Source: a virus. Taken from it: DNA of 64,000 nucleotides. The stretch covers positions 1 to 64,000 of the IMG/VR virus record IMGVR_UViG_3300032309_000911, one strand, 5' to 3'. Shown in pieces: positions 10,166 through 54,117 of the stretch; the stretch's first letter is position 1; each line of letters starts with the position of its first letter. The translations under genes and the position numbers were made by a program. The notes beneath the pieces are model-generated. The model had not been told where the DNA came from. It did no database searches and was given only the letters and a program-made list of their open reading frames with translations.

Positions 10166-10194
10166 TTGACATTCTTTATAATATATGATATAAT
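10166..10194 (+). promoter_or_regulatory. consensus sigma70 promoter
   Basis: TTGACA (10166-10171), 17 nt, TGa-TATAAT (10189-10194). Confidence 0.8.
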
Positions 10195-10200
10195 TATATA

Positions 10201-10413: not shown

Positions 10414-10415
10414 TC

Positions 10416-14707: not shown

Positions 14708-14714
14708 CTAGTTG

Positions 14715-15903: not shown

Positions 15904-15920
15904 AATTAACTCCTTTTATA

Positions 15921-17464: not shown

Positions 17465-17478
17465 TTACTATATTTATG

Positions 17479-17913
17479 TTAGTTATAGACACCTATATCT
17501 TTTTCAGTGAATATTTTAAACTCCAAACCTTGTCCTTCGCAATATGTTTTGGCTGCAGTCCATTTAGCTTGATTTTTAAGATATTCTAATTGTTCACGTA
17601 CAAAGTATTTGGTTTGTTTTTTAGGTGCTTTTGGTGGGAAACATTGTTTATATGGTTTAATTTCTACCATATATTTTTTACCATTTTTTAACTTAAAAAT
17701 GAAATCTGGAAAGTATCTATGAATACGATAATCAATAGGTGATCTATATGTAATAGGCATTTCTTCACTTGCCCAAAATTCTACATGATCATTTTTATCC
17801 AAATAAACCATCATGCGTCTCTCTAATAGTGAACGATATACTATTCTATTAGGATCACCAACGTATTTTTTAGGGTGTATTGGTTTATATATTCCTTTAT
17901 AACTCTTTGTCAT
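17479..17913 (-). CDS. gp4: head completion nuclease gp4
   Basis: YKGIYKPIHPKKYVGDP..IVYRSLLE, WASEE, HRYFPDF, VEIKP, NQAKW. Confidence 0.92.
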   Translation of the reverse strand: MTKSYKGIYKPIHPKKYVGDPNRIVYRSLLERRMMVYLDKNDHVEFWASEEMPITYRSPIDYRIHRYFPDFIFKLKNGKKYMVEIKPYKQCFPPKAPKKQTKYFVREQLEYLKNQAKWTAAKTYCEGQGLEFKIFTEKDIGVYN

Positions 17914-17919
17914 ATCACA

Positions 17920-17927
17920 TATAAATA
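17920..17927 (+). promoter_or_regulatory. T4-type late promoter for the gp48 operon
   Basis: TATAAATA about 25 nt before the ATG at 17952. Confidence 0.65.
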
Positions 17928-17951
17928 TTACTATTAATCATAAAGGTATTT

Positions 17952-19121: not shown

Positions 19122-19122
19122 A

Positions 19123-19656
19123 ATGTATTTTTCTTATTTTCCAAAAGGCCTATACGATTTAAAAGGTGATGGCAATACAAAATTAGTTACCGATTTAATG
19201 CGTAGAATCAAAGTTAGATCAAAAATTTTAAATCAAGCAAGTTTATATGATTTGTATGACGTGCCTGAAGGAGAAACACCTGAAATGACTGCATATAAAC
19301 ATTTTGGTAGTACTTCACTTCATTGGGTTATATTGTTAACAAATGACATAACAGATAGATATTATGGGTGGCCTTTAACAACAAATGAATTTGAAAACTA
19401 TTTAACAGAAAAATATACAAATCCAGACGGCATACATCATTATGAAATTCAACAATCAAGTGGCAAAACAACAAGTGAAGGCCCAAGTGATTATTCATAT
19501 TTAATAGAAGTTAACAGTGATACGCCAAATGCTGTATCAGTATCTAATAGAGAATATGAACAGAGAATACAGGATCAAAAAAGACAAATCAAATTATTAA
19601 ATACAACATATTTACCTGCTTTTTTAGAAGAATTTGAAAACTTAATGGCAAAATAA
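19123..19656 (+). CDS. gp53: baseplate wedge protein gp53
   Basis: MYFSYFP, GETPE..AYKHFG..LHWVILLTNDI, WPL, IHHYE, EYE...KRQIKLL. Confidence 0.9.
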   Translation: MYFSYFPKGLYDLKGDGNTKLVTDLMRRIKVRSKILNQASLYDLYDVPEGETPEMTAYKHFGSTSLHWVILLTNDITDRYYGWPLTTNEFENYLTEKYTNPDGIHHYEIQQSSGKTTSEGPSDYSYLIEVNSDTPNAVSVSNREYEQRIQDQKRQIKLLNTTYLPAFLEEFENLMAK

Positions 19657-41600: not shown

Positions 41601-41746
41601 ATGATTTTACGTTTAAAGAATACAAATATTCAGTAACAGGAATTAAAGAATTTACAGCATTTCAAATTAAAATAGTTATGAAAGGGTCGATTTCTTCTTA
41701 TCCTCCAATTATAAGAGATTTAAGAGGAATCGCTTTAGCGGCTTAA
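35663..41746 (+). CDS. large VrlC-like (DUF4815-type) virion structural protein
   Basis: NLSPYFDDY...FHRILYRPSFAVQARELTQSQSILQNQI, APGAHRFKI, RRTYDESGDY, RFKNGFIVDNF, DPIAQTF, IIRDLRGIALA. Confidence 0.8.
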   Translation: MPSPTDFNLSPYFDDYNESKKFHRILYRPSFAVQARELTQSQSILQNQIERVSDHLFEKGTMVIPGEIGFDLNYYAVKLTSKTYSSISDYIGKQLTGVTSGVIGICVNAVANDGTDPDTLYVKYNKTGTNNTSVAFSNGETINATAIGSVTVLASAVVNSTATGSAANIAEGVYYINGFHVSVTEQTLILDKYTNTPSYRVGLTITESFITPNDDVSLVDNAQGSSNANAPGAHRFKIDLTLAKRTLTSTDDSNFVELLRLSNGIRLNQVTRTNYAVLEDNMARRTYDESGDYTVRDFDLDIREHIVDGNNRGIYTLAQGGNPAKLAIGVGPGKAYVKGYEIETIGTTFIDSDKARDYDSENNFNTRFDVENYVNVTNVYGTPDIGFVSSDVEAFKNVNLYDTATSSRGTEQSTTGVTVPQIGRAKSKGFELNSGTASSNIFASSSLTNAVYKHYLFDIEMFTHLNIKTAVDFTDGEKVTGGTSGAYGYVQSLDSTKSSAVTSISVANPGVVTLSSHSFKEGQQITLTGGSFSIDSVAYSSGTVFTVKNPTTNTFQLYNSAGTSTVNVTAYSSAPTAAHGVVVLNNVTGIFVAGETITGNTSSLTAVIQDNRYGFNGVQTFDFTSVKQIGMSGSPTYTSDVSTDSTYGDNYTLFGSLSVANSGTTVTGFGTLFSAELRVGDSITFTTDAGSSITRIIESISSNTSLQLLTAVGGSDVSTKTIAVRKRGKLQGSNKNISIFELPYSVIKTLKTTANGGITDTNFKVRRHFTTTLSSGSATITAGTNEIFSSLTEKDFSVSIMSIGSATAGAVGDVLSLSGNNHNGSAIFTLGGSPTGKTLTLNFGTNYSNAKIKILATVNRSVAGSKTKTLNANSTKQVSSQSEIESGIISLGKADIYVINNIYMSANFSTNATTSDTNVTARFILDNGQRDNFYDIGRIKLKTGAITPTGRLLIDFDYYSHGSGDYFDVDSYSGSSDYENITEYTSDTTGKTYKLRDCLDFRPRVDDASTITSSGQDRQYSGTGASTIDIVQFGSDVSTDLEYYLPRIDKVFLDKDGNLKIVKGSSSLNPQVPKGLENAMHLYTIFLNAYTLSTSDLKIKKIDNKRYTMRDIGALEKRISNVEYYTQLSLLEANAQSLQIQDAEGFDRFKNGFIVDNFTGHGIGDVGNLDYKCSMDMAGGYVRPMFNSESVQLTEATNEGNTTVTNTNRSSANYQKTGDLITLPYTETTLINQPYASKYINVNPFNVFTWAGSVTLDPPGDEWKETNRAPDLIINEQGGFDTMVSNLGNPNLESVEIDTVWNEWQDFWQGTPSESTEQTNSYIGRVGGTTVRFGDFTTTTAQQISQTRTGIRSAIVPQVVRTSLGDKIVNIAFIPFIRSRTINFTATRLKPNTRLYPFFDNISITPYVTPTGGSLGGNLVTDSNGAVSGTFIIPDATVNSNPRWRTGQRLFRLTSSSTNSSSDVETSAEADYIAKGSLETVQNTIVSTREPQLVRQTVSDTRNITRTSTRTTTEVIQWIDPIAQTFLVDDTGGVFVTSIETYFQSKDSNIPVTLQIREVINGTPSRTIVPFGEVVLNPSQVSISDDATVSTKFSFPSPVYLQEKTEYAFCLLSNCNNYNAFVARLGDTQIGSDRTISQNPYAGVLFKSQNGSTWTPEQMEDIKFKINRAEFENATGTVTLVNDILPTRTLPTNSLRTTNSSGVIRVFHKNHGMHGTSNNVTIAGVAAGTYNGITHTQINGTYTSISNVTLDSYDITTVGTATATGDIGGSTVTVTQNRLFDVACLNLSTLTVPGTTINYTMRTTTGKSIHGTETEFNLAAASDFINVNTGDNIYFTSPQLVASSINETNEMAGNKSLFVNLTLTTSNTKLSPVLDTKRISMVAVQNRLNNPTSGNTPNYISDTASTGTSSAAVYLTRSVVLENASTSLDVRLTQNVRSSSSVKVYYRTTSASEVRNINDLSWVPFNIDGGEDISVTPSEDDFTFKEYKYSVTGIKEFTAFQIKIVMKGSISSYPPIIRDLRGIALAA

Positions 41747-41969: not shown

Positions 41970-43331
41970 ATGGCTTATACTATAATAAACACCACTGATA
42001 CACTAGAACAGATGCGAGTTAAGTTAAATAACTTGACTACTAATGATTTTGGTGATCCTTCAATTTTAGCTGGTGCAGGTATTACATCAACATCTATTAC
42101 AGGTGCTGTCGTAGAATTAGCTAATGTTGCATATTCTCAAGCTGGTTTTCGTATTGAAGATTCTACTTCTTCTTTTCAACAAATTGGTGCTGGTCAAACT
42201 TTAAGAGTTTTAGGAACATCAAATCAAATTAATGCTGTTGTAAGTGCTACAGATACTTTAACAATAAGTTTACCTAGTAACGTAACTATACCTAATAATT
42301 TAACAGCTAATGGTACATTGCACACATTGGGTACAATAGAAATTAGTGGAAATAATATTAGATCAACAGATTCTACAACTGTTAGAATTAATGATTCTTT
42401 AAATGTAAACGGTAGTATTTCAGCAACTTCTGTATCATCAACAGGCGCTGTTTCTGGTACAACTATAACAGGAACAGGTGCGGTTTCTGGTACAACTATT
42501 ACAGGTTCTTCAACAATACAAGGTACAGATTTAGTATTAACTTCAGGTGGAATAACTTTTGAAGGAGCAACCGATAACACATTTGAAACTACACTAGCGA
42601 TTACAGATCCAACGCAAGACAGAACAATTACAGTACCAAATATAACAGGTACTATTGTTACAACAGGAGATACAGGTACAGTTACTAGTACAATGATTGC
42701 TGATGGTACAATTGTAAATGCGGATATTGCTGATGGAACAATTAGAGGTGCCAAATTAAATGTATCTTCAGATAGTGTAACTTTTGCTAACGTAACTGCT
42801 ACTAATTTTACAGGAACAGCTTCAATAGCAACAACAGTTACTTTAAATGCGAATAATACGAATAATGAAACGGTTTATTTAACATTTTCAGATACCGCTA
42901 CAGGTAATCAAACTTTAGAAACGGATACAAGTTTATCTTATAATCCTTCAACAAATATATTATCTACAACAGCTACTCAAGCACAATATGCCGATTTAGC
43001 TGAGATTTATGATACAGATAAAAATTATGATATAGGTACAGTAGTTATGGTTGGCGGAAATAAAGAAGTTACAGAATGTTTTGTAGGTAAAAGAGCACTA
43101 GGTGTCATATCAGATAGACCTGCTTTTTTAATGAACTCTAAAGCAAAAGGTCAACCAGTTGCATTAAAAGGACGTGTTAAAGTAAAAGTTACAGGCGATG
43201 TTAAAAAAGGCGATGAATTAGTTGCAGGTAATGGTGGTTTTGCCACAACAATAAGTGAAGAATTTACAAAAGTATTTGCAATTGCTTTGGAAGATAATGA
43301 TAAAGGACTTATCGAGGCAATTATACTATAA
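41970..43331 (+). CDS. tail fibre/structural protein with a C-terminal autocleaving chaperone-like domain
   Basis: DTLEQMRVKLN N-terminus, Thr/Ser-rich shaft, AQYADLAEIY...GTVVMVGG...VALKGRVKVKV.G.VKKGDELV. Confidence 0.7.
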   Translation: MAYTIINTTDTLEQMRVKLNNLTTNDFGDPSILAGAGITSTSITGAVVELANVAYSQAGFRIEDSTSSFQQIGAGQTLRVLGTSNQINAVVSATDTLTISLPSNVTIPNNLTANGTLHTLGTIEISGNNIRSTDSTTVRINDSLNVNGSISATSVSSTGAVSGTTITGTGAVSGTTITGSSTIQGTDLVLTSGGITFEGATDNTFETTLAITDPTQDRTITVPNITGTIVTTGDTGTVTSTMIADGTIVNADIADGTIRGAKLNVSSDSVTFANVTATNFTGTASIATTVTLNANNTNNETVYLTFSDTATGNQTLETDTSLSYNPSTNILSTTATQAQYADLAEIYDTDKNYDIGTVVMVGGNKEVTECFVGKRALGVISDRPAFLMNSKAKGQPVALKGRVKVKVTGDVKKGDELVAGNGGFATTISEEFTKVFAIALEDNDKGLIEAIIL

Positions 43332-43355: not shown

Positions 43356-43802
43356 ATGATTGATGCTTTAAATGATGAATTAATATCTTTCACAAGATAC
43401 GAAAATAATCAAATAATCTATATAGACAAAAACGGCAAAGATTACAAAGTTAAAGATGAAATAACTTATGGTAATTGGATTAAAAATTATAAAAATATTC
43501 CACATATAAAAGTTGAAGGATTAGAAGATAATAATTATCATCTTCAATTATTAAAACAATACAATTTGAATTTTAAAATGAAAAATGTGCACCTTTTTTA
43601 TAATCAGTTTGGCGGGTTTTCTTTTCCTGAACATTCAGATGATATAGATGTATTATTGTGTGTTATTAAAGGTGGTAAAAAAGTATATACGGATAATTAT
43701 CCTGTTTTGGTGAAAGAAGGACAAGCAATATCTATACCTAAAGGTGTCAAACATAGAGTTGAAAGTTTACCGTTTACTTGGGCATTAAGTATAGGATATT
43801 AA
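43356..43802 (+). CDS. cupin/JmjC-like Fe(II) oxygenase
   Basis: FPEHSDDIDVLL (HxD) ... IPKGVKHRVES (distal His). Confidence 0.7.
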   Translation: MIDALNDELISFTRYENNQIIYIDKNGKDYKVKDEITYGNWIKNYKNIPHIKVEGLEDNNYHLQLLKQYNLNFKMKNVHLFYNQFGGFSFPEHSDDIDVLLCVIKGGKKVYTDNYPVLVKEGQAISIPKGVKHRVESLPFTWALSIGY

Positions 43803-43818
43803 GTATAGGATATAAAGA

Positions 43819-44856
43819 ATGAATTGGATGTTTTATATAAAGACAACTGAAACTTGTCAATTAAATTGCAAACATTGTTTCACTAGTGGTATTAATGGTA
43901 AAAAAATTTATTTTGATTATTTTAAAACAATAGATTTTATAAAAAGATTCAGACAATATTTTGATAGTAACGAAGATTCTATTCATTTTGAATTTCATGG
44001 GGGTGAACCTTTTTTAGCACCAGTATCTCACATGCAAAAAGTATATGATGAATGTAAAGATTTATGGAAAAATAGTACTTTTGGTATTACAACAAATTTA
44101 GTATTTAAATTAAAAGAAGAACACTATGAATTTATTAAGGGGCCTTTAAATAATCGTTTAGGTACAAGTTGGGATCCTAAAATAAGATTTGAAAATGATG
44201 CACAATATAATCTGTGGGAAAAAAACGTAAAAGATTTATTAAATAAAGGCGTTACAATAAAATTGTTTATCAGCGTAACTAAAGATACTATTAATATAGA
44301 ACCTATTAAACTATTAAAATGGATAAAACAATTAGGAGTACAAGAAATTTCTTTTGAAAGACTAACAGGTAATGGAAATGCAAAATTGCATCCTGAAATA
44401 TTCCCTGATAACATAGAACAGGATAAATGGTTTTTAAAAATGCACCATCAATCAAAAGAAAATAATTGTAGAAGTTGGTTTGATAATGAAACATTAGAAG
44501 TTATATACAGTAAGTTTGAAACAGGTTTTTTAAAAGGTGGTACTTTCTGTAGAGATTGTGAACAAAAGATTTTTACATTAAATGCTGATGGTACAATATC
44601 AGGTTGTCCAAATGCGGCGCCAGAGTTTCAATTTGGACACATAAATGACGATATTAAAAGTCTTATAAATAGTCCCAAAAGAATAGAAAACATCGCTTGT
44701 GAACGTGCAAGAAATCCTTTATGTTTTTCTTGTGAGGTTTTTGAGTTTTGTGGAGGTGATTGCCACCAACTTGCTTGGCAAGGTGATATATGTGGTGCAC
44801 CAAAAAGTTTAATGAAAGAGTTAAAATTAGGTATAAAATATGGTAACATTAACTAA
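43819..44856 (+). CDS. radical SAM/SPASM-domain enzyme 1
   Basis: TETCQLNCKHCF (CxxxCxxC), FHGGEPFL, C-terminal CRDC...GCP...CFSCEVFEFCGGDC...C. Confidence 0.92.
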   Translation: MNWMFYIKTTETCQLNCKHCFTSGINGKKIYFDYFKTIDFIKRFRQYFDSNEDSIHFEFHGGEPFLAPVSHMQKVYDECKDLWKNSTFGITTNLVFKLKEEHYEFIKGPLNNRLGTSWDPKIRFENDAQYNLWEKNVKDLLNKGVTIKLFISVTKDTINIEPIKLLKWIKQLGVQEISFERLTGNGNAKLHPEIFPDNIEQDKWFLKMHHQSKENNCRSWFDNETLEVIYSKFETGFLKGGTFCRDCEQKIFTLNADGTISGCPNAAPEFQFGHINDDIKSLINSPKRIENIACERARNPLCFSCEVFEFCGGDCHQLAWQGDICGAPKSLMKELKLGIKYGNIN

Positions 44857-45412
44857 TCCAGTTACGCCGCAAAATATAGTAGATAGATTTAAAGATTTGG
44901 TTACAGATGTAGCTAATACAAGTATAATTTGGGGAACAGATAATAAACCATTTTCAGAAATGCCAGATGCTAATTACGCTGGTACAATATCAGGAACTAC
45001 TATTAATGTTACTGGTTCTAATATTGCTATTACAGGAGATTTAATAACAGCTTCTACAATTAAATCTGTATTAGAAACAGAAACAGCTCTATATACAAAT
45101 ATTAGACAACAAAGAGCTATACTAAATGTAACAGGTGGTGGAGGAAATACAGGATCGAGACCGACTCCAGGAATAATTTATGATCAAACAAATGTAGCTA
45201 ATTTATCTGTAGATAATAGAGCATCGTTAGGATCCATTTCTAGTTCAAATGTAGATGCGGGACAAATAATAGACGATTTAAATTTAGAGACATATTTTGG
45301 AAATTTAGCAACGGCTTATGATGCTGTTAGAACTACGGCCGTAACACAACAAATAGATGTATGTCATGCTAGTTGTCATAGTTCATGTCATGGATCAAGA
45401 GGAAGAAGATAA
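44840..45412 (+). CDS. virion-like protein with C-terminal (C-H-x-S)3 tail; putative substrate/precursor of the radical SAM cassette
   Basis: Thr/Ser/Asn-rich, Cys/His-free body ending in VCHASCHSSCHGSRGRR*. Confidence 0.7.
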   Translation: MVTLTNPVTPQNIVDRFKDLVTDVANTSIIWGTDNKPFSEMPDANYAGTISGTTINVTGSNIAITGDLITASTIKSVLETETALYTNIRQQRAILNVTGGGGNTGSRPTPGIIYDQTNVANLSVDNRASLGSISSSNVDAGQIIDDLNLETYFGNLATAYDAVRTTAVTQQIDVCHASCHSSCHGSRGRR

Positions 45413-46104
45413 TGAATATAATTGAAACAATAGTTCCAATATCGATAGATAATTTAAAAAAACATTTTACGGACAAAGAAACATTTTATTTAATTGATTA
45501 TAAAAATAGTGAATTGAAAGGTAAAAAATTATTAACATATTTAAGTAATTTAGACTTACCTTCCGATATCAAAGAGCCTGATTTGGAATTAATAAAAGAA
45601 TATTTGCATAGCATTACTTTAGTTAATATTAATTCATTAGAAAACATTGTTATAGATATTCTTTTAGAATATAAAGGCATTTCTAAAACCAATAAGTATG
45701 AAACATTTATTAAAGAAAATAAAGATATAATTTCTTTATGGTCTGATAAGTTAGACAGTTTAAGTGTATTCAACATGTATATTGTAAATTCTGATGAATT
45801 TAAACAATATGCCAATTCTTTTATAAAAGATGATACTGCAAGTTTAGAAGGTGTTAATTTTGTAAGTTTATTAAAACAAGAAAGATTTTATCTATTCTAC
45901 AATAAACTAAATAGTAATATCAAATTCTATACTCATTATTTTAATGATTATATGTTTAGAGGTAAAAATCTTTATGAATTTTGGGCTACGTCCAAAAATC
46001 CTATGTTTTTATTAACTTGGGGAATAACACAAGGAAAAGGTAAAGATTATATAGAAGCTAAAATTAAAGATAAGGAAATTATAAAAAATGTTGCATTTAT
46101 TTAA
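45412..46104 (+). CDS. hypothetical protein of the radical SAM cassette
   Basis: Likely start MNIIETIVP via TAATG coupling; no recognisable motif. Confidence 0.65.
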   Translation: MNIIETIVPISIDNLKKHFTDKETFYLIDYKNSELKGKKLLTYLSNLDLPSDIKEPDLELIKEYLHSITLVNINSLENIVIDILLEYKGISKTNKYETFIKENKDIISLWSDKLDSLSVFNMYIVNSDEFKQYANSFIKDDTASLEGVNFVSLLKQERFYLFYNKLNSNIKFYTHYFNDYMFRGKNLYEFWATSKNPMFLLTWGITQGKGKDYIEAKIKDKEIIKNVAFI

Positions 46105-47173
46105 TAAAACATATTTAGAATTTGATGATAAAATAGAATTAAATTTTGATCGAGTAATTATTTCAGATGTAAATGGTGTAAATATATTGGATTCTTTAGA
46201 TAAAGTTGTTCAAGGAAAATTATTAAAATATGGTAAAAATTTAGACAATTTTAATTTTGTTAATTTAATAACTGAAATAAATTCTTATGGACAATCATCT
46301 AACAAAAAATTAGTAATATATTGCGATAAGTTAAATTATATTAAATTCGCAACTAAATGGTTAAAAACAATATTGCCAAATTTAGATTTAAATAATTTTT
46401 CAAAATTAATAGAATTAACAATTTATAAAGAAAGAATAATTAGTAATTCTCAAATGCAATCAGTAATACCTGTAAAACAAGATATTTTATGGGAAGGATT
46501 AGGAGATATATCATCTTCATTTAATTCAATAACAGTTTCTAATGAAGATAGACAATCTATAAAAAATTTAAATTTAAAATATTCTTATGAATTTCTTTTA
46601 GCTGATCATTTTAGCGGGTCATCTAATTATACATCTTCACTTACAACAATAGTGCATTTATTTTTGCAAAGATGGTTTAAAGAGTTATTTAAAGATAATA
46701 GAGAAATGGTATTGTTAAATCTTTTAAATAAAAATTTTCAAACAGCATTAAGTTTTACAGAAAGTAATATTGATTTAACTAAATCAAATCCTATAACTGG
46801 AGTTTCTTCTTTACAATTTTATTCTGATGAAAATATTTGGTCTAAAGAAAACTCATGTAAAGTTGAAGGATTAACACAAATACAAATAGATGGTTTACGA
46901 AATTTAGTTAAAAAAATTTACGGTGATGTGGAAGGCATGGAAATAGACAACGCTGTGTTTGGTATGCTTGATTATTTAGAATATGCAGCCAAAACTTCTA
47001 TCACTACAGAAGAATTAAATACTATATTAAATTATGTTGTAACAAATCCATTTGATACTTGTTTAATACCAAAATTTGATTTTCAAAATGTAAACTTTGT
47101 TTTTGTACAACACCTTTTAAATTTAAAGAGAGATAATAACACAGAGGTACTTACAAAGTTTAGATTATTATAG
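46088..47173 (+). CDS. hypothetical protein of the radical SAM cassette
   Basis: 361 aa overlapping ORF; no recognisable motif. Confidence 0.65.
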   Translation: MLHLFNKTYLEFDDKIELNFDRVIISDVNGVNILDSLDKVVQGKLLKYGKNLDNFNFVNLITEINSYGQSSNKKLVIYCDKLNYIKFATKWLKTILPNLDLNNFSKLIELTIYKERIISNSQMQSVIPVKQDILWEGLGDISSSFNSITVSNEDRQSIKNLNLKYSYEFLLADHFSGSSNYTSSLTTIVHLFLQRWFKELFKDNREMVLLNLLNKNFQTALSFTESNIDLTKSNPITGVSSLQFYSDENIWSKENSCKVEGLTQIQIDGLRNLVKKIYGDVEGMEIDNAVFGMLDYLEYAAKTSITTEELNTILNYVVTNPFDTCLIPKFDFQNVNFVFVQHLLNLKRDNNTEVLTKFRLL

Positions 47174-47180
47174 GATTGCA

Positions 47181-48227
47181 ATGCGTGAATTTTTGATTGA
47201 TCCTAAAAGAGATCCTGAACAGGAATATACAATTCATTTATTTGAATTTTGTAATTTAAGTTGTGCTTTCTGTTGGCAAAATCATCAAGATAAAATAGGC
47301 ATAGACACGGTTCTTGATAAATTAGAACCTATTGAAAGATTTGTTAGTAAAGAATATAAAAATAAGATTACTCTTAATTTGATGGGTGGCGAAGTATTTG
47401 CGCCTAGTATTTATACTAAACAATTAAATGAAGCCTATAAACAATTATCTTTAGGCATTCAAAAAATTGCAGACAAATATAACAAACAATGTTCTTTAAA
47501 TTGGGTGTCAAATTTAGTTACTGATAAGTTAGATTTGATTGAAGATTTATTACAATACTCCAAAGACAATCATATTAAAGCACGTTTAACAACATCATAC
47601 GATCCTCGTGGCCGTTTTAATCCAAAACAATTCGAAGTGTTTAAAAAAAATGTAGATTATTTTAAAGATAGAGTAACGTGTTTTTCTTGTTTATTAACTA
47701 AACCAAATATAGAATATTATTTAACTGAGGGTGATGAATATTTTGATTATCTTTATAACAATGGTAAATATATTTACTTTGATTATTATATGCCTGATGA
47801 ACACGCTAAATTTAATATGCCAAGTGATGAATTACTTTTAAAATTCTTTAAACATTGTGTTGACAAATATCCTAATGTGCATCCTGTAAAAGATTGGATT
47901 TTTAATAAAAAAAATTACGCTTCATGTAGAGTTAGTAAATTGGTATTAGCTGATGGAACTTTATGTATGTGTGGCAACTTGGTACAAGACAAAAAATCAT
48001 TAAGTATGTACAAATCGCCTATTAAACGTATGAACAATAATGAAATTGAAAACAAATTTTTAGAAAAATATAATTGTGCTTCTTGTGAGTTTTTGGATAG
48101 GTGTACATTAGGATGTTTTATGAATCACGATTACAAATATAAGGAGGAGCTGAATGAGTGTGTCTATAAACTTACGCACAGATATATCGAAGATGTACGA
48201 GTACAACGAGGATACATCGCTTATTAA
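47181..48227 (+). CDS. radical SAM enzyme 2 with Cys-rich SPASM-like tail
   Basis: FEFCNLSCAFCW, LMGGE, C-terminal CMC...CASCEFLDRCTLGC...C. Confidence 0.9.
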   Translation: MREFLIDPKRDPEQEYTIHLFEFCNLSCAFCWQNHQDKIGIDTVLDKLEPIERFVSKEYKNKITLNLMGGEVFAPSIYTKQLNEAYKQLSLGIQKIADKYNKQCSLNWVSNLVTDKLDLIEDLLQYSKDNHIKARLTTSYDPRGRFNPKQFEVFKKNVDYFKDRVTCFSCLLTKPNIEYYLTEGDEYFDYLYNNGKYIYFDYYMPDEHAKFNMPSDELLLKFFKHCVDKYPNVHPVKDWIFNKKNYASCRVSKLVLADGTLCMCGNLVQDKKSLSMYKSPIKRMNNNEIENKFLEKYNCASCEFLDRCTLGCFMNHDYKYKEELNECVYKLTHRYIEDVRVQRGYIAY

Positions 48228-48726
48228 TATCAAATTACCTAAAAATATTGATGTTAAATTGGATAATCTTCCTGTAAAACAACCATATATTCCTAGAATA
48301 TGTGGTAGACAAGCTCACATGTTTATTTGGTGGGGAACTAAAGAAACCGACCCGGACATTTATGAACAAACTTTAAAAAATAAAAATGAAGAACAATGGA
48401 TAACTTGTGATGAAATTTGGAAATTAGAAAAAGGTATTTCCTCAATTCATATATATGACACTGAAATTATTGTAGGATGTGTTAAATATTCTGGTGTTTT
48501 GAAAAAAAAAACTATACATGAAAGAAAAAAATTTATTAGACAAATGTGGAATGATATAGTAAGTATGTTTAAAGATAAAAAAATTATTGTTCCTGTAGGT
48601 TCATATTTAGAATATATAAGTTTGTCAATAAATTTAACAAAAATACAACACGAACCTTATCAAAAAAGATTTTTAAATCCATTAGGTTTTAAAAAACAAG
48701 GAAATTATTGGATAAGATGGACCTAA
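48154..48726 (+). CDS. hypothetical protein of the radical SAM cassette
   Basis: Overlapping co-oriented ORF; start uncertain. Confidence 0.6.
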   Translation: MSVSINLRTDISKMYEYNEDTSLINIKLPKNIDVKLDNLPVKQPYIPRICGRQAHMFIWWGTKETDPDIYEQTLKNKNEEQWITCDEIWKLEKGISSIHIYDTEIIVGCVKYSGVLKKKTIHERKKFIRQMWNDIVSMFKDKKIIVPVGSYLEYISLSINLTKIQHEPYQKRFLNPLGFKKQGNYWIRWT

Positions 48727-49808
48727 TAATTAAACCAACAGAATTGTGTAATTTTAAATGTACTTTTTGTTCTAGCACTAAAATAGCGGAACACAAAAAA
48801 GATGTATTATCGCTTGAACAAATATTTACATTTTTAAAAAGATTTCCTCAAACAAGAACAATTATAGTTAATGGAGGCGATCCTTTAATGATGGAACCAG
48901 AATACTATTGGAAAATTATTGAATGGTTGGATAAAAACGATTACGATACATCTATTGCATTAACTACAAATTTATGGCCATTCTATAAAAAACCAGACAA
49001 ATGGGTTAATTTATTTAACAATGAAAGAGTTGGTGTAACTACATCTTTTCAATATGGAGGTGGCCGTCTTAAAGGAGATTTAACAGAATTTACAGAAGAA
49101 GATTTTTGGAAATGTTCAAATGCTATGTTAGAATATTGTGGTTATAGGCCAGATTTTATATCTGTTATTGTTCCTGAAAACGAAAAAGATGCAATTAAAA
49201 ATGTAGAACTTGCAAAACGTATGAGTGAAGATATTGTACCTGATGGAACAATGCACAATTTTACACGTCATAGTAAGACTGGTGTGGAATGTAAATTAAA
49301 TTATGCAATGTCTAGTGGCGATCAAGGTAAACCTTATTTGTTAAGTAAGATATATCAGATATACGTAGAAATATGGAAACGTGGTCTTGCACCTTGGGAA
49401 TTTAATACAAAACAAATGATACAAAGATTAAACAATGATAGAACATCTTGTCCTCAAAATCGCAAATGCGATACTGGAATACGTGCATTAAATCCTAGCG
49501 GAGATTATTATTCTTGTGGTGCTTTTGGTGATGATAAAGACAAAACCATAGATTTTGATAGAGAAATGAAAGGAGAGTTTTTTACTCCTTTACAAGATGA
49601 TTTAAATTTGCTTAGTATGAAGAAATCTTGTTTTACTTGTCCTATGTTTAATATATGTAATGGTTGCAGAAAAACAATTAAGGATTTTAAACATCACGGA
49701 GTTGTAGAAGAACATTGCAAACTTATGAAAACCATAGCACCGGACATAATTAAATCTAATGGACTAAATATTGAAGTAACACCTTATATAGATGAAAGTG
49801 TATTATGA
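48717..49808 (+). CDS. radical SAM/SPASM-domain enzyme 3
   Basis: MDLIIKPTELCNFKCTFCS, VNGGDPL, CPQNRKC...YSC...CFTCPMFNICNGC...C. Confidence 0.92.
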   Translation: MDLIIKPTELCNFKCTFCSSTKIAEHKKDVLSLEQIFTFLKRFPQTRTIIVNGGDPLMMEPEYYWKIIEWLDKNDYDTSIALTTNLWPFYKKPDKWVNLFNNERVGVTTSFQYGGGRLKGDLTEFTEEDFWKCSNAMLEYCGYRPDFISVIVPENEKDAIKNVELAKRMSEDIVPDGTMHNFTRHSKTGVECKLNYAMSSGDQGKPYLLSKIYQIYVEIWKRGLAPWEFNTKQMIQRLNNDRTSCPQNRKCDTGIRALNPSGDYYSCGAFGDDKDKTIDFDREMKGEFFTPLQDDLNLLSMKKSCFTCPMFNICNGCRKTIKDFKHHGVVEEHCKLMKTIAPDIIKSNGLNIEVTPYIDESVL

Positions 49809-50326
49809 TTAATGATTTTTTAACAAAAGGTTTTATTATATTAAATGATAAAGATCCTTTTAAATTTATAGATATCAATGATATACAATGGACTGATGCC
49901 GGTCATGTAGGTTTGCAAGTAGTTATTAAAGAAGAAAAAATACAAAATGAACTATTAACAACTCAAAAATATCTAGGTGAGAAATACGTAAAACAAATAG
50001 ATTCGAATTACAAACTTGCTAATAAAATAGATTTAGTAAATGGCATGGATGAGGCTACTTTGGTTTGGCATAACGATTTAATAGAAGGACCAAATCTTTG
50101 CATTTTAACTTATTTTGATGATATGGATGTTGATATTGGAGGTGCTATTTGTTTTAGAAAAACAGAAACAAAAGAAGATTTAATAAAACATTACCCTAAA
50201 AAAAATGATATTCTTATTATGAATCAAAGTTTAAAATATGAACATATAGTTACACCTCTGAAATTAAAACTTCCTAGACGAGTGGCCAGTTTTAATTATT
50301 ATATAGATGAAAGGTTGACAAAATGA
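49805..50326 (+). CDS. Fe(II)/2-oxoglutarate dioxygenase
   Basis: VWHNDL (HxD), GGAICF, YEHIVTP, RRVASF. Confidence 0.8.
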   Translation: MINDFLTKGFIILNDKDPFKFIDINDIQWTDAGHVGLQVVIKEEKIQNELLTTQKYLGEKYVKQIDSNYKLANKIDLVNGMDEATLVWHNDLIEGPNLCILTYFDDMDVDIGGAICFRKTETKEDLIKHYPKKNDILIMNQSLKYEHIVTPLKLKLPRRVASFNYYIDERLTK

Positions 50327-50901
50327 AAGAAGGATTTAATAATTTGTGGCCTACTATCATATTAAAAGATATTATAAAAGATAAACCATTATTAGATGAT
50401 GTAACAAATTATACATTAACAAAATATGGGTTAGATAATAAGATATCAGCAGATATTAAATATCAAAATCTATTTGATGATAATTATTATAACAAGTTTA
50501 GATACAACATAGTAATACCTTTTTTTGAAAAATATTTGCAAGAAAATGTAGGTATTAGTTTGAAAGATAAAAAATATACTATGAGAGCATGGTTAACGGG
50601 TTATGGTGTTTCTTATTCTATGCCAAAACACAATCATTCAGGTTCTCATTTGAGTGCGGTATTTTATTTACTATCCGAAGATAATCATCTAGGAGGATCT
50701 TTAGTAATAAATGACCCTCGTTTTAATGCAAATAGAGGTTATACGCCTGATTTTAAAAAATGGTTTGAAAAAGAAATGTTTAATCCAAAAACAGGAGATA
50801 TTTTAATATTTCCAAGTTTTACTTATCATAGTGTTGACACTTATTATGGAAAATTAAGATTAGCTATGCCTGTTGATCTAATATTATATAATGATGAATA
50901 A
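50323..50901 (+). CDS. Fe(II)/2OG oxygenase (phage 2OG-FeII_Oxy_5-like)
   Basis: LWPTII, RAW, KHNHSGSHLSAVFY, DPR, ILIFPSFTYHSV, R-L-A-M. Confidence 0.8.
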   Translation: MKEGFNNLWPTIILKDIIKDKPLLDDVTNYTLTKYGLDNKISADIKYQNLFDDNYYNKFRYNIVIPFFEKYLQENVGISLKDKKYTMRAWLTGYGVSYSMPKHNHSGSHLSAVFYLLSEDNHLGGSLVINDPRFNANRGYTPDFKKWFEKEMFNPKTGDILIFPSFTYHSVDTYYGKLRLAMPVDLILYNDE

Positions 50902-51820
50902 TATAACAGTATCTATAAATCCAAGTTATTTTTGTAATTTTAGATGTAATTTTTGTTATCTCGCAACTGAACAATTAGGTGATCAAAAAAAAATATCATT
51001 ATCAATACTAGATAAAAGATTAAAAGAAATTAGTAAAGTTAGAAATATAGAATGGGTTGATCTATATGGTGGAGAAATAGGCGCATTAAAAAAGGATTAT
51101 TTTTATGGATTAAAAGATGTAGTAAGAAAATATTACAAAGATAAAATTAATATAATAACCAATTATTCTATGTTACACGAAGGATTTTTTAAAGACGATT
51201 TTTATTTAAGTGTAAGTTATGATTTCGAAGCAAGAGAAAAATCCGATTTAGTTTATAATAATATGTTTCAGAGTACGGTGCCTATTGCAGTATTAATACT
51301 TGCAAGTCAAAAGGTAATAGAAATGAACGTAGATGATATGATAAACAAATTAAATCTTTGTTCTAGTATAGAAAGCGTGGAAATTAAACCATATTCAATA
51401 AATCAAGCAAATGAACAATATGTTACACATAAAGATTTTGAATTGTTTGTGCAAAAATGGATTGAAAGTCCTGTAATAAAAAAATTTGATTTTATAAATG
51501 AAGGAAAAATAATTCAAAGTTTAAATAAAGAATACAACGCATTTTCAAACAATCATGTTTATATAACTCCTAATGGAAATTTTGCTGTATTAGAATTTGA
51601 TAAAAATGATAAAGAGTATTTTTTAGAATTAAGTTCTATTAAAGAATATATAAAATGGGCAGAACAAGAACCAATAAAAAATATTTCAGATATATGTAGA
51701 AAATGTAAATATTACGGTCATTGTTTAACTGAACATTATCGTTATGTAAAAGATTTAAATAACAGTTGTAATGGATATAAAGGATTATTAGAATATTATG
51801 GAAAAAGAATGGAAAATTAG
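50891..51820 (+). CDS. radical SAM enzyme 4 with short Cys-rich tail
   Basis: NPSYFCNFRCNFCY, LYGGE, C-terminal CRKCKYYGHC...SCNG. Confidence 0.9.
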   Translation: MMNNITVSINPSYFCNFRCNFCYLATEQLGDQKKISLSILDKRLKEISKVRNIEWVDLYGGEIGALKKDYFYGLKDVVRKYYKDKINIITNYSMLHEGFFKDDFYLSVSYDFEAREKSDLVYNNMFQSTVPIAVLILASQKVIEMNVDDMINKLNLCSSIESVEIKPYSINQANEQYVTHKDFELFVQKWIESPVIKKFDFINEGKIIQSLNKEYNAFSNNHVYITPNGNFAVLEFDKNDKEYFLELSSIKEYIKWAEQEPIKNISDICRKCKYYGHCLTEHYRYVKDLNNSCNGYKGLLEYYGKRMEN

Positions 51821-52193
51821 ACAAGCATTATATCACAAATTAAATAGTGATTATACTGACGATCTAAAAAAGATAAAAATAGAAATAAGTAGCGATATTG
51901 TTGAAAATTGTATAAGATATTTTTATAATACCGATATGCCTTTTATATACCCGTCAAAAAGTTATGTGGTGGCCATTTGTTATGCCTATTGGTTATCAAA
52001 AGACTTTGGTGAAGATTTTTATGAATTGTTAAACGATAAAGATTTGTTATATGGAAACGACCCATATTTTAAAACATATGAAGAAGATACTAAAACGTAT
52101 GATGAAATATTAAAAAAGGTTATGCCTCTTGATGAAAATAAAGGTATAGTGCCAGACATAAAGAATTATTATATGGCTGAATTTTTTATATAA
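51798..52193 (+). CDS. hypothetical protein, last gene of the radical SAM cassette
   Basis: YPSKSYVVAICYA...LLYGNDPYF; overlaps enzyme 4. Confidence 0.65.
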   Translation: MEKEWKIRQALYHKLNSDYTDDLKKIKIEISSDIVENCIRYFYNTDMPFIYPSKSYVVAICYAYWLSKDFGEDFYELLNDKDLLYGNDPYFKTYEEDTKTYDEILKKVMPLDENKGIVPDIKNYYMAEFFI

Positions 52194-52196
52194 ATA
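52189..52196 (+). promoter_or_regulatory. T4-type late promoter
   Basis: TATAAATA at the end of the cassette. Confidence 0.6.
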
Positions 52197-52441: not shown

Positions 52442-52789
52442 ATGGCAGGTATAGCAAACTTATCAATAGACGCCGGCGCTACATTTACAAGTGATGTATT
52501 AGTACAGAATGATGATGGTACTGCTTTTAATTTAACAGGTTATACAGCTCAAGGTAAAATGTCTCAAGGATATTCTGCCACATATCAAAGAGTATATTTT
52601 GATATTACTATCTATCAAGCTGATGGAATAGTAACAATAGGTTTAGATCCTGCAACAACTGCTCAGTTAGAGGATGGCCGTTGGGTTTATGATGTAGAAA
52701 TAACTAATGTAGCCGATAGTACAGTAACACGTGTTGTTGAAGGTATTATTACAGTTTATCCAGGTGTAGTTTCTACTTACAATCCTTAA
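52442..52789 (+). CDS. conserved virion structural protein (BppU-N-like Ig fold)
   Basis: ANLSIDAGATF...FNLTGYTA...GRWVYDVEI...VTRVVEGIITVYPGV. Confidence 0.7.
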   Translation: MAGIANLSIDAGATFTSDVLVQNDDGTAFNLTGYTAQGKMSQGYSATYQRVYFDITIYQADGIVTIGLDPATTAQLEDGRWVYDVEITNVADSTVTRVVEGIITVYPGVVSTYNP

Positions 52790-54117
52790 TCGAAAAATTT
52801 ATTTGTAGGTATTTTTATTTCTACATTGTTTTTAGAAAAATGATAATCTCCATCTGGGCCATTATCACAAAAAGGTCCTGAAATTAATCTAAAACCTAAA
52901 TCTTCAACATACTTAATTACTTCATCTCTTAAAGGTGCGCCTTTGTTATATTCTACTATTTGTAATTCTAATATTAAATCTTTACAATGTTTTAAAGCTT
53001 CTTTAGATCCTTTTAAAACATCCAATTCAGCACCTTGTACATCTATTTTTATTAAGTCCGGCATAGGCAGATTTCTTGAACTTATAATACTATCTAAAGT
53101 TTTAGTTTTATATAATTTTTTATTACTTTCATTATACAATCTATTAGATTCAGAACTGATTTGTTCGTTTTCTTTATAATAACTATTTCCACCAGGATGA
53201 TAAGTGTTTTTATAAAAATTAACTTCTTTATCTGTTCTATCACTTAGTACACCTATATGGTATTGTAAATTGTTTTCTTTGTATAAAAATTCACATTCTG
53301 ACATTGCTTCAAAAACAACATACTCAGCATTTGGCCATATTGTTTTAGCTTCACTTGTCCAATGTAGTACACAAGCACCTATATCGTAAATTACTTTTGG
53401 TGATATGTTTAAACTTTTCAAATAATCTACGTGTATTTGAGGTAACAATCTTTTAGTTGATAAATCTTTTAATCTATCAGTTATATTAATTTCTTTTTTA
53501 TTTACAGTTGGAGTATTAGGTGTACTTTCCACTTTAAAAATCGTATTACCTATATGTTCACAATGTACTGTTGTATCAGCAAATATTTCAAAACCTTTTG
53601 CTTTAACTTTTCTACAAAAATCAACATCTTCTGATATTGTATTTTTATGATCTATTGCTGAATGATAAACAAAATGAGGATAAGGTATCGATCTAAAAAC
53701 TTCTCCTTTAATTAATACACAACCCATTCCACAAGCTGCTAATTCAACTAATGGAGTATCCTTTATTTTTTCAAATGGTATATTTGAACAACCACCTCTA
53801 TCATTGTGTTCATAAACTTCTAATATATGTTCGTTTTCTTTTCTTTGTATGTAAAGACCTGATATCATGTCTTTATTATGACTTAAAAGTTTTTTAAGTG
53901 TATCTGTTGAAAAAGAAATATCACTATCTACTGAAAACAAATAATCATAATGAGTTGCCCAATGTGCTATTAAATTTCTTATTTGATCTATTTGATAACC
54001 AAAGAAAAATTGTAATTCTGTAGTATAACCATCGGGAATTTCAAGGTCATAAATGGCCTTCATTGTTTTTGTTTCAACGTATTTGTTTGTTGGTATAGCT
54101 ATTAATATTTTTTTCAT
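52786..54117 (-). CDS. GT-A glycosyltransferase fused to an FkbM-family methyltransferase
   Basis: ILIAIP, LFSVDSDI (DxD), GMGCVLI, SEDVDFC; then IYDIGAC, FEA, LIKIDVQGAELDVLKG. Confidence 0.85.
   Translation of the reverse strand: MKKILIAIPTNKYVETKTMKAIYDLEIPDGYTTELQFFFGYQIDQIRNLIAHWATHYDYLFSVDSDISFSTDTLKKLLSHNKDMISGLYIQRKENEHILEVYEHNDRGGCSNIPFEKIKDTPLVELAACGMGCVLIKGEVFRSIPYPHFVYHSAIDHKNTISEDVDFCRKVKAKGFEIFADTTVHCEHIGNTIFKVESTPNTPTVNKKEINITDRLKDLSTKRLLPQIHVDYLKSLNISPKVIYDIGACVLHWTSEAKTIWPNAEYVVFEAMSECEFLYKENNLQYHIGVLSDRTDKEVNFYKNTYHPGGNSYYKENEQISSESNRLYNESNKKLYKTKTLDSIISSRNLPMPDLIKIDVQGAELDVLKGSKEALKHCKDLILELQIVEYNKGAPLRDEVIKYVEDLGFRLISGPFCDNGPDGDYHFSKNNVEIKIPTNKFFD

Follow-up and report, generated by a model that had tools for sequence, protein, structure and literature searches.

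The DNA analyzed here, referred to as the window, corresponds to the initial 64 kb of a virus record of 86.5 kb (IMGVR_UViG_3300032309_000911) and has a G + C content of about 30%. Positions 43356 to 52193 of the window hold twelve open reading frames (ORFs), all located on the + strand and overlapping by 4 to 74 nt at nine junctions, in agreement with the twelve co-oriented, mostly overlapping genes reported in a preliminary description of this DNA. The cassette encodes four paralogous radical S-adenosylmethionine (SAM) enzymes (rSAM1 to rSAM4), oxygenase-like proteins, accessory proteins, and a 190-residue protein ending in three Cys-His-x-Ser (CHxS) units. We propose, with moderate confidence, that the cassette is a maturation system for this one protein, which would remain intact and be used together with fibers in contact with the host. 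The preliminary description had stated that the phage modifies a protein that it encodes; gene association supports this view, the word 'modifies' being itself deduced from that association. Judged from the loci compared below, the system comprises about ten conserved genes, including those for four or five paralogous rSAMs.

The proposed substrate is encoded by positions 44840 to 45412 (+ strand). According to an AlphaFold2 (AF2) model based on a 35-row alignment (pLDDT of 88.2; pTM of 0.81), it would consist of a folded carrier of about 174 residues and a 16-residue tail, the latter being modeled with low confidence. The alignment and a census of the family define the tail as a C-terminal core of sequence (C-H-x-S)x3-R-x-R-R, encoded by positions 45362 to 45409 (+ strand) and directly followed by the stop codon. 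Cys residues are present only at positions 175, 179, and 183 and His residues only at positions 176, 180, and 184, and the protein ends in R-G-R-R. The Cys/His/Ser repeat noticed in the preliminary description at the end of one gene product thus contains all the Cys and His residues of the protein.

Conservation of the family is concentrated in the tail. A protein search yielded 797 clusters at E ≤ 0.001, none of which bears a name, and a profile search of 1.84 billion representatives yielded 840 family members at E ≤ 0.001 and 589 at E ≤ 1e-10. Following clustering of the family representatives at 50% identity, the strict tail C-H-x-x-C-H-x-x-C-H-x-x-R-x-R-R was found at the end of 141 of the 150 best representatives (less than 50% identical), with exactly three units in 140; the remaining nine carried one-residue variants or truncations of the tail. 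No other Cys was present in 106 of the 141 strict-tail carriers. In the alignment of 35 sequences from phages and bacteria, picked for spread from well over 150, the invariant columns were limited to the three Cys, the three His, and three Arg, and the fourth position of the repeat was mostly Ser but also Asn, Ala, or Asp. (The other alignments, A1, A3, A4, and A5, contained 19, 16, 12, and 12 sequences, respectively, also picked for spread.) Between phage RSF1 and the window, the carrier has diverged beyond recognition by BLAST and the tail is the same. A tblastn search of phages with the tailed protein gave no match, although phages Atu_ph07 and RSF1 encode homologues; for such a search, the body has diverged too far, and the tail is both too short and too simple. 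Since the tail is the sole invariant part of a family with a diverged carrier and is strictly associated with the cassette, we infer that the tailed protein is the substrate and that its tail is the modified part.

The invariance of Cys, His, and Arg only, the occurrence of S, N, A, or D at the fourth position, and the lack of any other Cys in most carriers are also compatible with a tail providing the ligands of a metal or Fe-S-type center, some of the rSAMs assembling or inserting the cofactor. We regard this explanation as very improbable. The enzymes are closer to peptide maturases than to cofactor-building rSAMs (see below), four or five paralogous rSAMs would be needless for a plain metal site, and no metal-delivery family was recognized in the cassette.

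In the AF2 model, the carrier is predicted to contain three long helices packed on a long β-hairpin and two further strands. The first Cys terminates the strand formed by residues 168 to 175, and no linker separates the tail from the folded domain. The model matched no known fold, since Foldseek returned nothing from the PDB at E ≤ 0.001 and the best score in a wide VIA-align search was a Z of 4.4; matches in BFVD were limited to uncharacterized homologues, the Atu_ph07 protein among them. No conserved Gly-Gly-type cleavage site precedes the tail in the 35-sequence alignment, and no protease or exporter family was recognized by Pfam, NCBIfam, or PHROG among the twelve cassette proteins. Because the tail extends without a linker from a folded domain, and because no cleavage motif and no protease or exporter family was found, the product most probably stays an intact protein. 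Release of a bioactive peptide, one of the outcomes considered in the preliminary description, is not supported by these data.

By the general definition of peptides that are synthesized ribosomally and modified post-translationally (RiPPs), the tailed protein shows what appears to be a carrier followed by an invariant C-terminal core. A C-terminal core associated with SPASM maturases and tailoring oxygenases is the layout of many RiPP clusters, and the best matches of the rSAMs include the maturases of ranthipeptides, darobactin, and dynobactin. The carrier could thus be a long leader from which the modified tail of 16 residues, possibly as part of a slightly longer peptide, would be cleaved to give a diffusible bioactive or metal-binding product. 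We consider this improbable, since the cassette lacks recognizable protease and transporter families, no Gly-Gly-type site is conserved ahead of the tail, and the latter is borne directly by a strand of a confidently modeled 174-residue domain. A RiPP recognition element (RRE) or PqqD-like domain was not detected by Pfam or NCBIfam in the cassette proteins, and the model of accessory protein A (see below) has no clear fold match. The carrier also accepts insertions of, and fusions to, fiber-type domains, as better fits a functional protein than a leader. Indeed, five longer homologue clusters (374 to 461 residues) combine the carrier with a Gly_rich_2 domain matching phrog_863 ('tail fiber assembly'), which is located in front of the carrier or inserted in it, the tail being the same.

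Two variants of the tailed protein were recorded in addition. A 257-residue subgroup (L022 to L027, positions 10001 to 10771) contains about 70 additional residues, inserted in the loop that follows the first helix and strand, at the site where Gly_rich_2 is inserted in homologue P0125. A contig assigned to Dysosmobacter (Firmicutes; L046, positions 3907 to 4266) encodes an expanded core comprising three consecutive CHxSCHxS-type blocks separated by 'VV' and followed by RxRR; this ORF is truncated by the contig end.

Co-inheritance of the tailed gene with the enzymes is strict. Using rSAM3 as the query, 313 relatives were found in IMG/VR, of which the best 80 were analyzed. A strict tailed ORF was present in 62 of these 80 loci, always upstream and on the same strand. 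Fifteen of the 18 loci devoid of it have less than 5.3 kb of contig upstream, and the two that were inspected begin inside or just after the gene for accessory protein B. The last three represent a single rearranged lineage. In G303, the only record of this lineage long enough to be checked, a tandem pair of tailed genes is found immediately outside the locus, between the end of a fiber gene of the intramolecular chaperone (IMC) type and an rSAM gene of a fifth type. Among the loci found with rSAM3, no complete cassette lacked the tailed gene. Homologous cassettes without the CHxS protein, a prospect raised in the preliminary description, were therefore not encountered. In 26 IMG/VR loci retrieved with the tailed protein itself, the gene order of the window was kept wherever the contig was long enough.

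The cassette is not restricted to the relatives of the phage represented by the window. Comparison of the whole block with the phage collection by megablast gave no match. A tblastn search with rSAM1 identified 15 records of 12 jumbo phages (40–52% identity over at least 96% of the query; 48–52% for some of them), namely Agrobacterium phage Atu_ph07, Sinorhizobium phage Phosso, Ralstonia phages RSF1, RSL2, three FLC4 phages, and RsoM3USA, Burkholderia phages FLC6, FLC8, and SURPRISE13, and Pseudomonas phage pPa_SNUABM_DT01. Atu_ph07 and RSF1 are syntenic with the window, as they encode the cupin, rSAM1, a protein ending in C-H-S-S-C-H-x-S-C-H-x-S-R-x-R-R, accessory protein A, rSAM2, rSAM3, and rSAM4. 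The RSF1 cassette additionally contains a 2-oxoglutarate (2OG) oxygenase and an rSAM of the fifth type.

Cellular genomes were scanned with a degenerate DNA pattern for the tail, using one genome per prokaryotic species. A tailed ORF was found in 31 of the 32 stretches retrieved, the remaining one, from Microbacterium, being taken as a chance match of the pattern. In every stretch of sufficient extent, the tailed ORF is flanked by orthologues of the rSAMs or accessory proteins of the window. Twenty of the 31 loci are labeled as Bdellovibrionota (Bdellovibrio, Pseudobdellovibrio, Bacteriovoracaceae, and Halobacteriovoraceae), three of them on contigs measuring 1.29, 2.45, and 2.84 Mb. The other loci were from three contigs of a Rhodobacteraceae bin, which differ in the coverage given in their names, from Vicingus, Flavobacteriaceae, Dysosmobacter, and two further bins, and from three marine metagenome-assembled genomes (MAGs). 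The latter three, which resemble the phage lineage of the window, probably represent phage DNA. In four Bdellovibrionota genomes, the extended regions contain all genes of the set, arranged differently and bidirectionally. Among twenty flanking ORFs compared with Pfam, none matched a capsid, terminase, or tail family; the matches obtained were to a serine dehydratase, a helicase-exonuclease, RCC1 repeats, matrixin-like peptidases, a transposase, S74 fibers, and a B12-binding rSAM. These flanks and the megabase size of three of the contigs disfavor prophages or mis-binned phage DNA as the source of the Bdellovibrionota loci, which may nevertheless be old prophage remnants. An orthologue of rSAM3 (E ≤ 1e-60) was present in 10 of 301 sampled Bdellovibrionota genomes, four of the ten having served as search seeds; the system is thus an accessory trait in this group. 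Taken together, these comparisons suggest that the system spans T4-like aquatic phages, phiKZ-like and Rak2-like jumbo phages, and Bdellovibrionota chromosomes. The phage-encoded cassette announced in the preliminary description is therefore real, but it is not specific to phages, being also chromosomal in predatory bacteria.

A maximum-likelihood tree of 45 rSAM ORFs, taken from nine loci and the window, resolved five orthogroups with 98–100% support (98/96 for rSAM1, 100/99 for rSAM2, 100/100 for rSAM3, and 98/98 for rSAM4), each of which mixes phage and Bdellovibrionota members. This topology indicates that the rSAM paralogues diverged before the system spread and that the system travels as a unit. 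The truncated ORF081 of RSF1, the B12-type rSAM of L064, and all other loci were left out of the tree. Five ORFs form long branches in or near the rSAM5 group (L038_166, L126_14502, L126_15505, L126_17778, and L147_302), and their placement is unsure. Beside rSAM1 to rSAM4, G303 encodes on one strand four tandem, strongly diverged paralogues of the fifth type (L126, positions 14502 to 18797); with a further enzyme of this type immediately past them, in L147, at least nine radical SAM enzymes are encoded within about 22 kb.

The rSAMs of the window contain 309 to 366 residues and are encoded on the + strand by positions 43819 to 44856 (rSAM1), 47181 to 48227 (rSAM2), 48708 to 49808 (rSAM3), and 50891 to 51820 (rSAM4). 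The Cx3Cx2C motif of the radical SAM superfamily falls in the first 31 residues of all four proteins (at residues 13, 24, 14, and 15, respectively). A full seven-Cys SPASM pattern, consisting of Cx9-16Gx4C, Cx2Cx5Cx2-3C, and one later Cys, is present in rSAM1, rSAM2, and rSAM3. This pattern is reduced to Cx2Cx5C and one additional Cys at the C-terminus of rSAM4. Thus, the four motifs reported in the preliminary description were all recovered, the SPASM-like tail attributed to each enzyme being complete in three of them. Scores for the Pfam Radical_SAM family (PF04055) were 22.7, 27.0, 36.4, and 29.4 bits for rSAM1 to rSAM4, respectively, rSAM3 alone exceeding the gathering cut-off of 29.5 bits. 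All four enzymes matched phrog_1802 ('radical SAM domain-containing protein'; 7.5e-28 to 1.3e-68, with 6.2e-44 for rSAM2). The NCBIfam SPASM family TIGR04085 was matched by rSAM1 above its cut-off of 27 (34.5 bits) and, with lower scores, by rSAM3 (24.7 bits) and rSAM2 (20.1 bits). The most conserved enzyme, rSAM3, is 54–64% identical to its orthologues from Atu_ph07, RSF1, and Bdellovibrionota, with a mean column identity of 64% across phages and predators, and rSAM4 is 52% identical to its Atu_ph07 orthologue. Translation of rSAM3 may start at a TTG codon (48708) or at an ATG codon (48717). Since the Met encoded at 48717 (Met4) is invariant among 12 aligned orthologues, the shorter form is probable, and the start given in the preliminary description is probably right.

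The best NCBIfam matches of the rSAMs are SPASM maturases of peptides or proteins, including PapB (5.6e-15), the anaerobic sulfatase maturase, DynA (5.1e-12), DarE, HxsB, and HxsC. Grouping of the enzymes with the nucleotide- or cofactor-modifying families QueE, MoaA, and NrdG, a possibility mentioned in the preliminary description, was not found; matches to these families were weaker and restricted to the N-terminus. Membership in a characterized maturase family is not indicated either, as exemplified by the sulfatase maturase (TIGR03942), for which rSAM1 and rSAM3 scored 46.5 and 39.3 bits against an equivalog cut-off of 349. These matches bear on the alternative that the enzymes act on another substrate (a fiber, a nucleotide, or a small molecule) and that the CHxS protein is an accessory factor such as a sulfur donor, an electron carrier, or an assembly chaperone. 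Fibers with an IMC or Peptidase_S74 (S74) domain are frequent neighbors of the cassette, weak matches to MoaA, QueE, and NrdG were obtained for the N-terminal halves of the rSAMs, and one orthologue is annotated as MoaA in RsoM3USA. However, these matches cover only the generic radical SAM core, many cassettes lack fibers whereas all complete ones contain the tailed gene, and the extreme conservation of the terminal 16-residue motif is that of a substrate. There is, in our opinion, little chance that this alternative is correct.

Returning to maturation of the CHxS protein, comparison with characterized enzymes provides indications on the chemistry. PapB (NF047865) is the best full-length match of rSAM1 (residues 9 to 317 aligned with positions 9 to 318 of a 330-position profile), and both systems combine a compact radical SAM and SPASM architecture with Cys residues regularly spaced near the C-terminus of the substrate. 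In PapB substrates, the spacing is Cys-x3-Asp/Glu. The differences are that rSAM1 scores 55.4 bits against an equivalog cut-off of 340, well outside the family, that the present precursor is predicted to be a folded protein of about 190 residues, that no leader-type recognition domain was found, and that the partner residues differ. QhpD, another SPASM enzyme, makes several Cys thioether cross-links in QhpC, a small subunit that stays in a larger assembly. Faint similarity to this family (TIGR03906) was detected for rSAM2 (E of 0.012), although the score of 14 bits compares with a cut-off of 453 and there is no dehydrogenase context in the cassette. A precedent for RiPP-like thioether chemistry on a whole protein is provided by CrpC of Methanococcus voltae, a SPASM enzyme that, in the portion of the report consulted, installs ranthionine cross-links on the adjacently encoded Cys-rich protein CrpA (PMC13692751). 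According to the same portion, CrpC is a single enzyme with its own recognition domain acting on a Cys-rich substrate, whereas several paralogous enzymes and separate accessory proteins are encoded here together with a tail containing three Cys.

By analogy with characterized SPASM maturases, the likeliest modifications would be Cys-based thioether or related carbon-heteroatom cross-links. Each of the four paralogous rSAMs, three of which would contain two auxiliary SPASM-type Fe-S clusters and one a reduced motif, would introduce its own covalent change into the (CHxS)3 core of the 190-residue product of 44840–45412. The flexible tail would thereby be converted into a rigid, possibly metal-binding knob.

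Oxygen-dependent tailoring, including hydroxylation, may be added by the Fe(II)/2OG oxygenases of the cassette, of which the preliminary description counted three. The assignment is clear for the product of 50323–50901 (+ strand), which matches PF13759 (2OG-FeII_Oxy_5) with 43.1 bits against a cut-off of 27 and also matches phrog_81; the Pfam family is also present inside the Bdellovibrionota cassette L063. It is weaker for the two other proteins, which score just under the cut-offs but contain the HxD motif and a later His. The product of 49805–50326 (+ strand), a 2OG-Fe(II)-oxygenase-like protein with an H89-N-D91 motif, matches PF13640 (2OG-FeII_Oxy_3) with 24.0 bits against 27 and belongs to phrog_19592; homologues were found within Bdellovibrionota cassettes. 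The product of 43356–43802 (+ strand) is a cupin-fold protein and probably an Fe(II) oxygenase (H93-S-D95 and H133; Cupin_2, 26.2 bits against a cut-off of 27.2). Its orthologues in Atu_ph07, RSF1, and Bdellovibrionota loci usually adjoin the genes for rSAM1 and for the accessory protein encoded by 51798–52193.

As stated in the preliminary description, four genes are orphans, since the products of 45385, 46088, 48154, and 51798 could be assigned to no family of Pfam or NCBIfam. Those of 45385 and 51798 match PHROGs of unknown function. Accessory protein A (45385–46104, + strand; phrog_20767 at 8.1e-61) is kept in the phage and Bdellovibrionota cassettes examined, usually adjoining the tailed gene, as deduced from a 19-sequence alignment. 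Its AF2 model (pLDDT of 83.2) gave no fold match by Foldseek against the PDB or by a wide VIA-align search (best Z of 4.6 over 55 residues). Accessory protein B (46088–47173, + strand; 361 residues) is a conserved partner of A and rSAM2, with homologues in IMG/VR and Bdellovibrionota loci and no match in Pfam, the PDB, or the ESM Atlas. The accessory protein encoded by 51798–52193 (+ strand; phrog_20737 at 6.2e-44) contains a conserved NDPYF..Y..YD.I motif and 14 invariant alignment columns; in Bdellovibrionota, its gene adjoins those for rSAM1 and the cupin. The fourth orphan (48154–48726, + strand) encodes a 190-residue protein and overlaps the rSAM2 gene by 74 nt. It has no family in Pfam, NCBIfam, or PHROG, and its homologues (43–72% identity) were found in related IMG/VR loci only, with none in Atu_ph07, RSF1, or the Bdellovibrionota loci examined. 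PDB sequence and profile searches with accessory proteins A and B, the 51798 family, the tailed family, and rSAM1 returned nothing meaningful. Accessory protein A, accessory protein B, and the 51798 family would be non-enzymatic, probably acting as substrate-presenting or scaffolding subunits, because the rSAMs seem too short to contain a recognition domain of their own. We also considered that the accessory proteins might be degenerate radical SAM folds and rejected this idea, as hhalign showed no relation between B and rSAM3 or between A and B. Prediction of a complex between accessory protein A and the tailed protein gave a score of 0.00 in a run made without controls, which is informative neither way.

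Gene adjacency suggests three sub-modules. The first comprises the tailed gene and the genes for accessory protein A, accessory protein B, and rSAM2; the second comprises the genes for rSAM1, the 51798-family protein, and the cupin; the third associates rSAM3 and rSAM4 with the 2OG oxygenases.

The HXS system appears to be the nearest analogue in logic. In this system, as described in sections of a recent article, HxsB and HxsC act with HxsD to mature HxsA, a protein with five His-x-Ser repeats, a change of +8 Da was mapped on an SHRSS motif, and entry of phage DNA is blocked by the product, which is periplasmic (Li et al., Nat Commun 2026, PMC13128918). Both systems involve a protein with tandem His-x-Ser units flanked by basic residues, more than one rSAM, and small helper proteins, and the modified motif is essential in HXS itself (same sections of PMC13128918). 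The present cassette might therefore produce an HXS-like effector mediating superinfection exclusion in phages and belonging to an anti-phage defense island in Bdellovibrionota. The experimentally established activity of HXS (in the sections cited of PMC13128918), the likeness of the motif, with basic residues adjoining, the use of multiple rSAM maturases with small accessory proteins, the weak matches of rSAM1 to HxsB (1.1e-11) and of rSAM3 to HxsC (4.1e-8), and the sporadic distribution in Bdellovibrionota (the 10 of 301 genomes, four of them seeds), which is typical of accessory mobile systems, are in favor of this explanation. We nonetheless regard it as unlikely. The HxsB match (44.2 bits) covers only the N-terminal 116 residues of rSAM1 and compares with an equivalog cut-off of 370, the HxsC match (32.5 bits) compares with a cut-off of 267.9, and no NCBIfam match to HxsA or HxsD was obtained at E ≤ 0.1 for the products of 44840, 45385, 46088, 48154, and 51798, the only match, to CfaB, being unrelated. 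The scores thus place the present proteins outside the HXS families. The units of the present tail each start with an invariant Cys, are nearly always exactly three, and are located at the extreme C-terminus, whereas the repeats of HxsA are not said to contain Cys in the sections cited of PMC13128918. Four or five rSAMs and oxygenases are present instead of two rSAMs, there is no peptidoglycan-binding domain or signal peptide, and PADLOC yielded only generic, viperin-level rSAM similarity of about 30 bits. The distribution also differs, as the system occurs in phages and Bdellovibrionota and HXS mainly in Gammaproteobacteria (PMC13128918, same sections). Finally, the gene is located beside fibers in a structural block rather than in a defense island, and its Atu_ph07 copy starts a cluster of virion-protein genes.

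This gene neighborhood is the basis for assigning the matured CHxS protein to the apparatus that contacts the host. In agreement with the location given in the preliminary description, between a tail-fiber gene and further structural genes, the window contains directly upstream of the cassette a gene (41970–43331, + strand) for a 453-residue protein of the trimeric-fiber type with a C-terminal IMC (Peptidase_G2) region (PF11962 at 2.1e-5, residues 295 to 391; phrog_19602, tail fiber). Downstream are located a gene (52442–52789, + strand) for a 115-residue protein of a tail-fiber-assembly family (phrog_3304, 'L-shaped tail fiber protein assembly', 2.6e-19) and large fiber genes. A fiber homologous to the product of 41970–43331 holds the same position in related IMG/VR loci, and an IMC-like ORF is present in 49 of the 62 rSAM3 loci that contain the tailed gene, typically about 1.5 kb from the latter. 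In Atu_ph07, genes for a baseplate wedge protein, a giant structural protein, small proteins, and an IMC fiber (gp176) are followed by those for the cupin, rSAM1, and the tailed protein; the RSF1 cassette follows baseplate and virion genes. In a separate lineage, which includes G303, an IMC-ended fiber gene is followed within 0–2 nt by two tandem tailed genes and an rSAM gene ('fibre-CHxS-CHxS-rSAM5'), the fiber containing about 2000 residues in the three contigs of the Rhodobacteraceae bin.

Evidence for a link with the virion also comes from Atu_ph07, in which most of the virion proteins detected by mass spectrometry are encoded in clusters CDS 31–76, CDS 170–215, and CDS 284–329, as stated in the part of the report consulted (PMC6102473). 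Since gp170 is the tailed protein, the numbering agreeing at gp181, the second cluster starts at the tailed gene. In Bdellovibrionota, short Peptidase_S74 fibers are encoded inside or beside the cassette in six loci (L034, L049, L059, L063, L064, and L065). Fibers of this type serve B. bacteriovorus as MAT adhesins on prey, according to an article (PMC10769870) in which the term 'radical' is absent and the rSAM/CHxS system is not mentioned. At L064 of Pseudobdellovibrio (positions 8153 to 9880 and 18597 to 19640), the cassette contains an inserted gene for an extra protein of 575 residues with weak, sub-cut-off matches to B12-binding and radical SAM domains, and the neighboring S74 fiber has an N-terminal methylation motif like that of type IV pilins. 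The fiber neighbors, the fusions to the fiber-assembly domain Gly_rich_2, and the start of the Atu_ph07 virion cluster suggest a role in contact with the host or prey and lend indirect support to the tailed protein being a virion component. The mature protein would stay intact and be assembled with trimeric fibers in an envelope-contact apparatus, as a virion component of the baseplate or fiber region in phages and together with the S74 fibers in Bdellovibrio-like predators.

Several observations weigh against this proposal. Every member of the system is known from genes alone, and only one of the four rSAMs and one of the three oxygenases reach the gathering thresholds of Pfam. The evidence from Atu_ph07 is indirect, a cluster boundary not being a detection, and the RSF1 annotation gives the tailed protein no virion label, though a neighboring gene has it. 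Adjacency to fibers in IMG/VR is inflated by relatedness, and the observations on the window, on Atu_ph07 and RSF1, and on the tandem lineage are partly non-independent. Among cellular loci, an IMC or S74 ORF was present in only 7 of 31 8-kb loci and 3 of 5 extended loci. Many of the cellular loci are on MAG contigs, which may be mis-binned phage DNA. No signal peptide is visible in the alignment of tailed proteins, and export in a diderm predator thus appears unexplained. The pairing of oxygen-requiring oxygenases with oxygen-sensitive rSAM enzymes is likewise unexplained.

More speculatively, unrelated tailed phages and predatory bacteria might have in common a mobile 'warhead' module, in which a protein with a (CHxS)3 C-terminus, made cross-linked and metal-binding by four or five radical SAM enzymes and oxygenases and mounted with trimeric fibers, would be needed to recognize or breach the Gram-negative envelope. 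We hold this possibility only tentatively. If correct, it would provide, to our knowledge, the first virion protein matured by radical SAM enzymes and a molecular tool common to viral and bacterial predators. Maturation by radical SAM/SPASM enzymes is already known for peptides and a few proteins and, in the literature searched, has not been reported for a phage structural module; the novelty resides in the substrate motif, the accessory families, and the unusual host range. The 16-residue motif is almost unchanged across T4-like phages, jumbo phages, and Bdellovibrionota. The system therefore offers new enzymology on a well-defined substrate, three or four accessory families without a recognized fold, and a link, open to testing, between adsorption of phages and predation by bacteria. 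Cultured carriers that are in principle open to genetics include Atu_ph07, RSF1, RSL2, and Burkholderia phages FLC6 and S13.

Papers on jumbo phages list these genes, uncommented, as 'cupin, Fe-S oxidoreductase, radical SAM, 2OG oxygenase', and the terms 'radical', 'SPASM', and 'RiPP' are absent from a comparative review of these phages. No analysis of the tailed protein, its motif, or the Bdellovibrionota connection was found in the literature, subscription journals and supplements being outside the scope of the search. The preliminary description had likewise not recognized the four-enzyme architecture as a described phage pathway.

The phage represented by the window appears to be an aquatic, T4-like phage. 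Its tail and baseplate genes match T4-type families, and a 2027-residue VrlC-like giant baseplate protein is encoded at 35663–41746 (phrog_358). The nearest cultured relative of a tail protein is from Pelagibacter phage Mosig (37% identity), followed by HTVC008M and the Methylophilales phages Melnitz. Because of this T4-type, pelagiphage-like setting and the VrlC-like protein encoded upstream, we assign the cassette to the region named the host recognition cluster in pelagimyophages, in which radical SAM cassettes were noted in the portion consulted of the study by Zaragoza-Solas et al. (PMC7029224). Just past the cassette, between fiber genes, positions 52786 to 56141 contain on the - strand genes for a 443-residue protein with an FkbM methyltransferase domain and for a 675-residue fusion of GT1-type and GT2 glycosyltransferase domains, which fit the glycosyltransferase-rich host recognition cluster described for these phages.

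Apart from the probable source sample and another run of that study, the DNA sequencing runs sharing the most words with the cassette stretch (43356–52193) were labeled as freshwater metagenomes of three studies (share of 0.34–0.43) and one marine metagenome (0.24), with no RNA run containing the stretch among those listed. Since the best DNA runs were mostly labeled freshwater, the phage is termed aquatic rather than marine. These labels contrast with the nearest cultured relatives, which are marine SAR11 and OM43 phages. The two freshwater genomes included in the pelagimyophage study lack radical SAM genes, as stated in the same portion of that paper (PMC7029224).

The preliminary description had placed the cassette between two late-promoter-like motifs. 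An exact TATAAATA, the consensus of T4-type late promoters, is present at positions 52189 to 52196 (+ strand), just past the cassette and ahead of the next gene, but the sequence at 43341 is TAATAAATA. The octamer is not enriched in the window (18 occurrences versus 20.9 expected by chance from shuffled sequences), and the bracketing motifs are therefore weak evidence for late promoters. Fifteen of the 18 TATAAATA octamers are located on the + strand, several of them just upstream of + strand structural genes, and the positions include 17920, 29308, 34130, 34159, 56163, and 61742.

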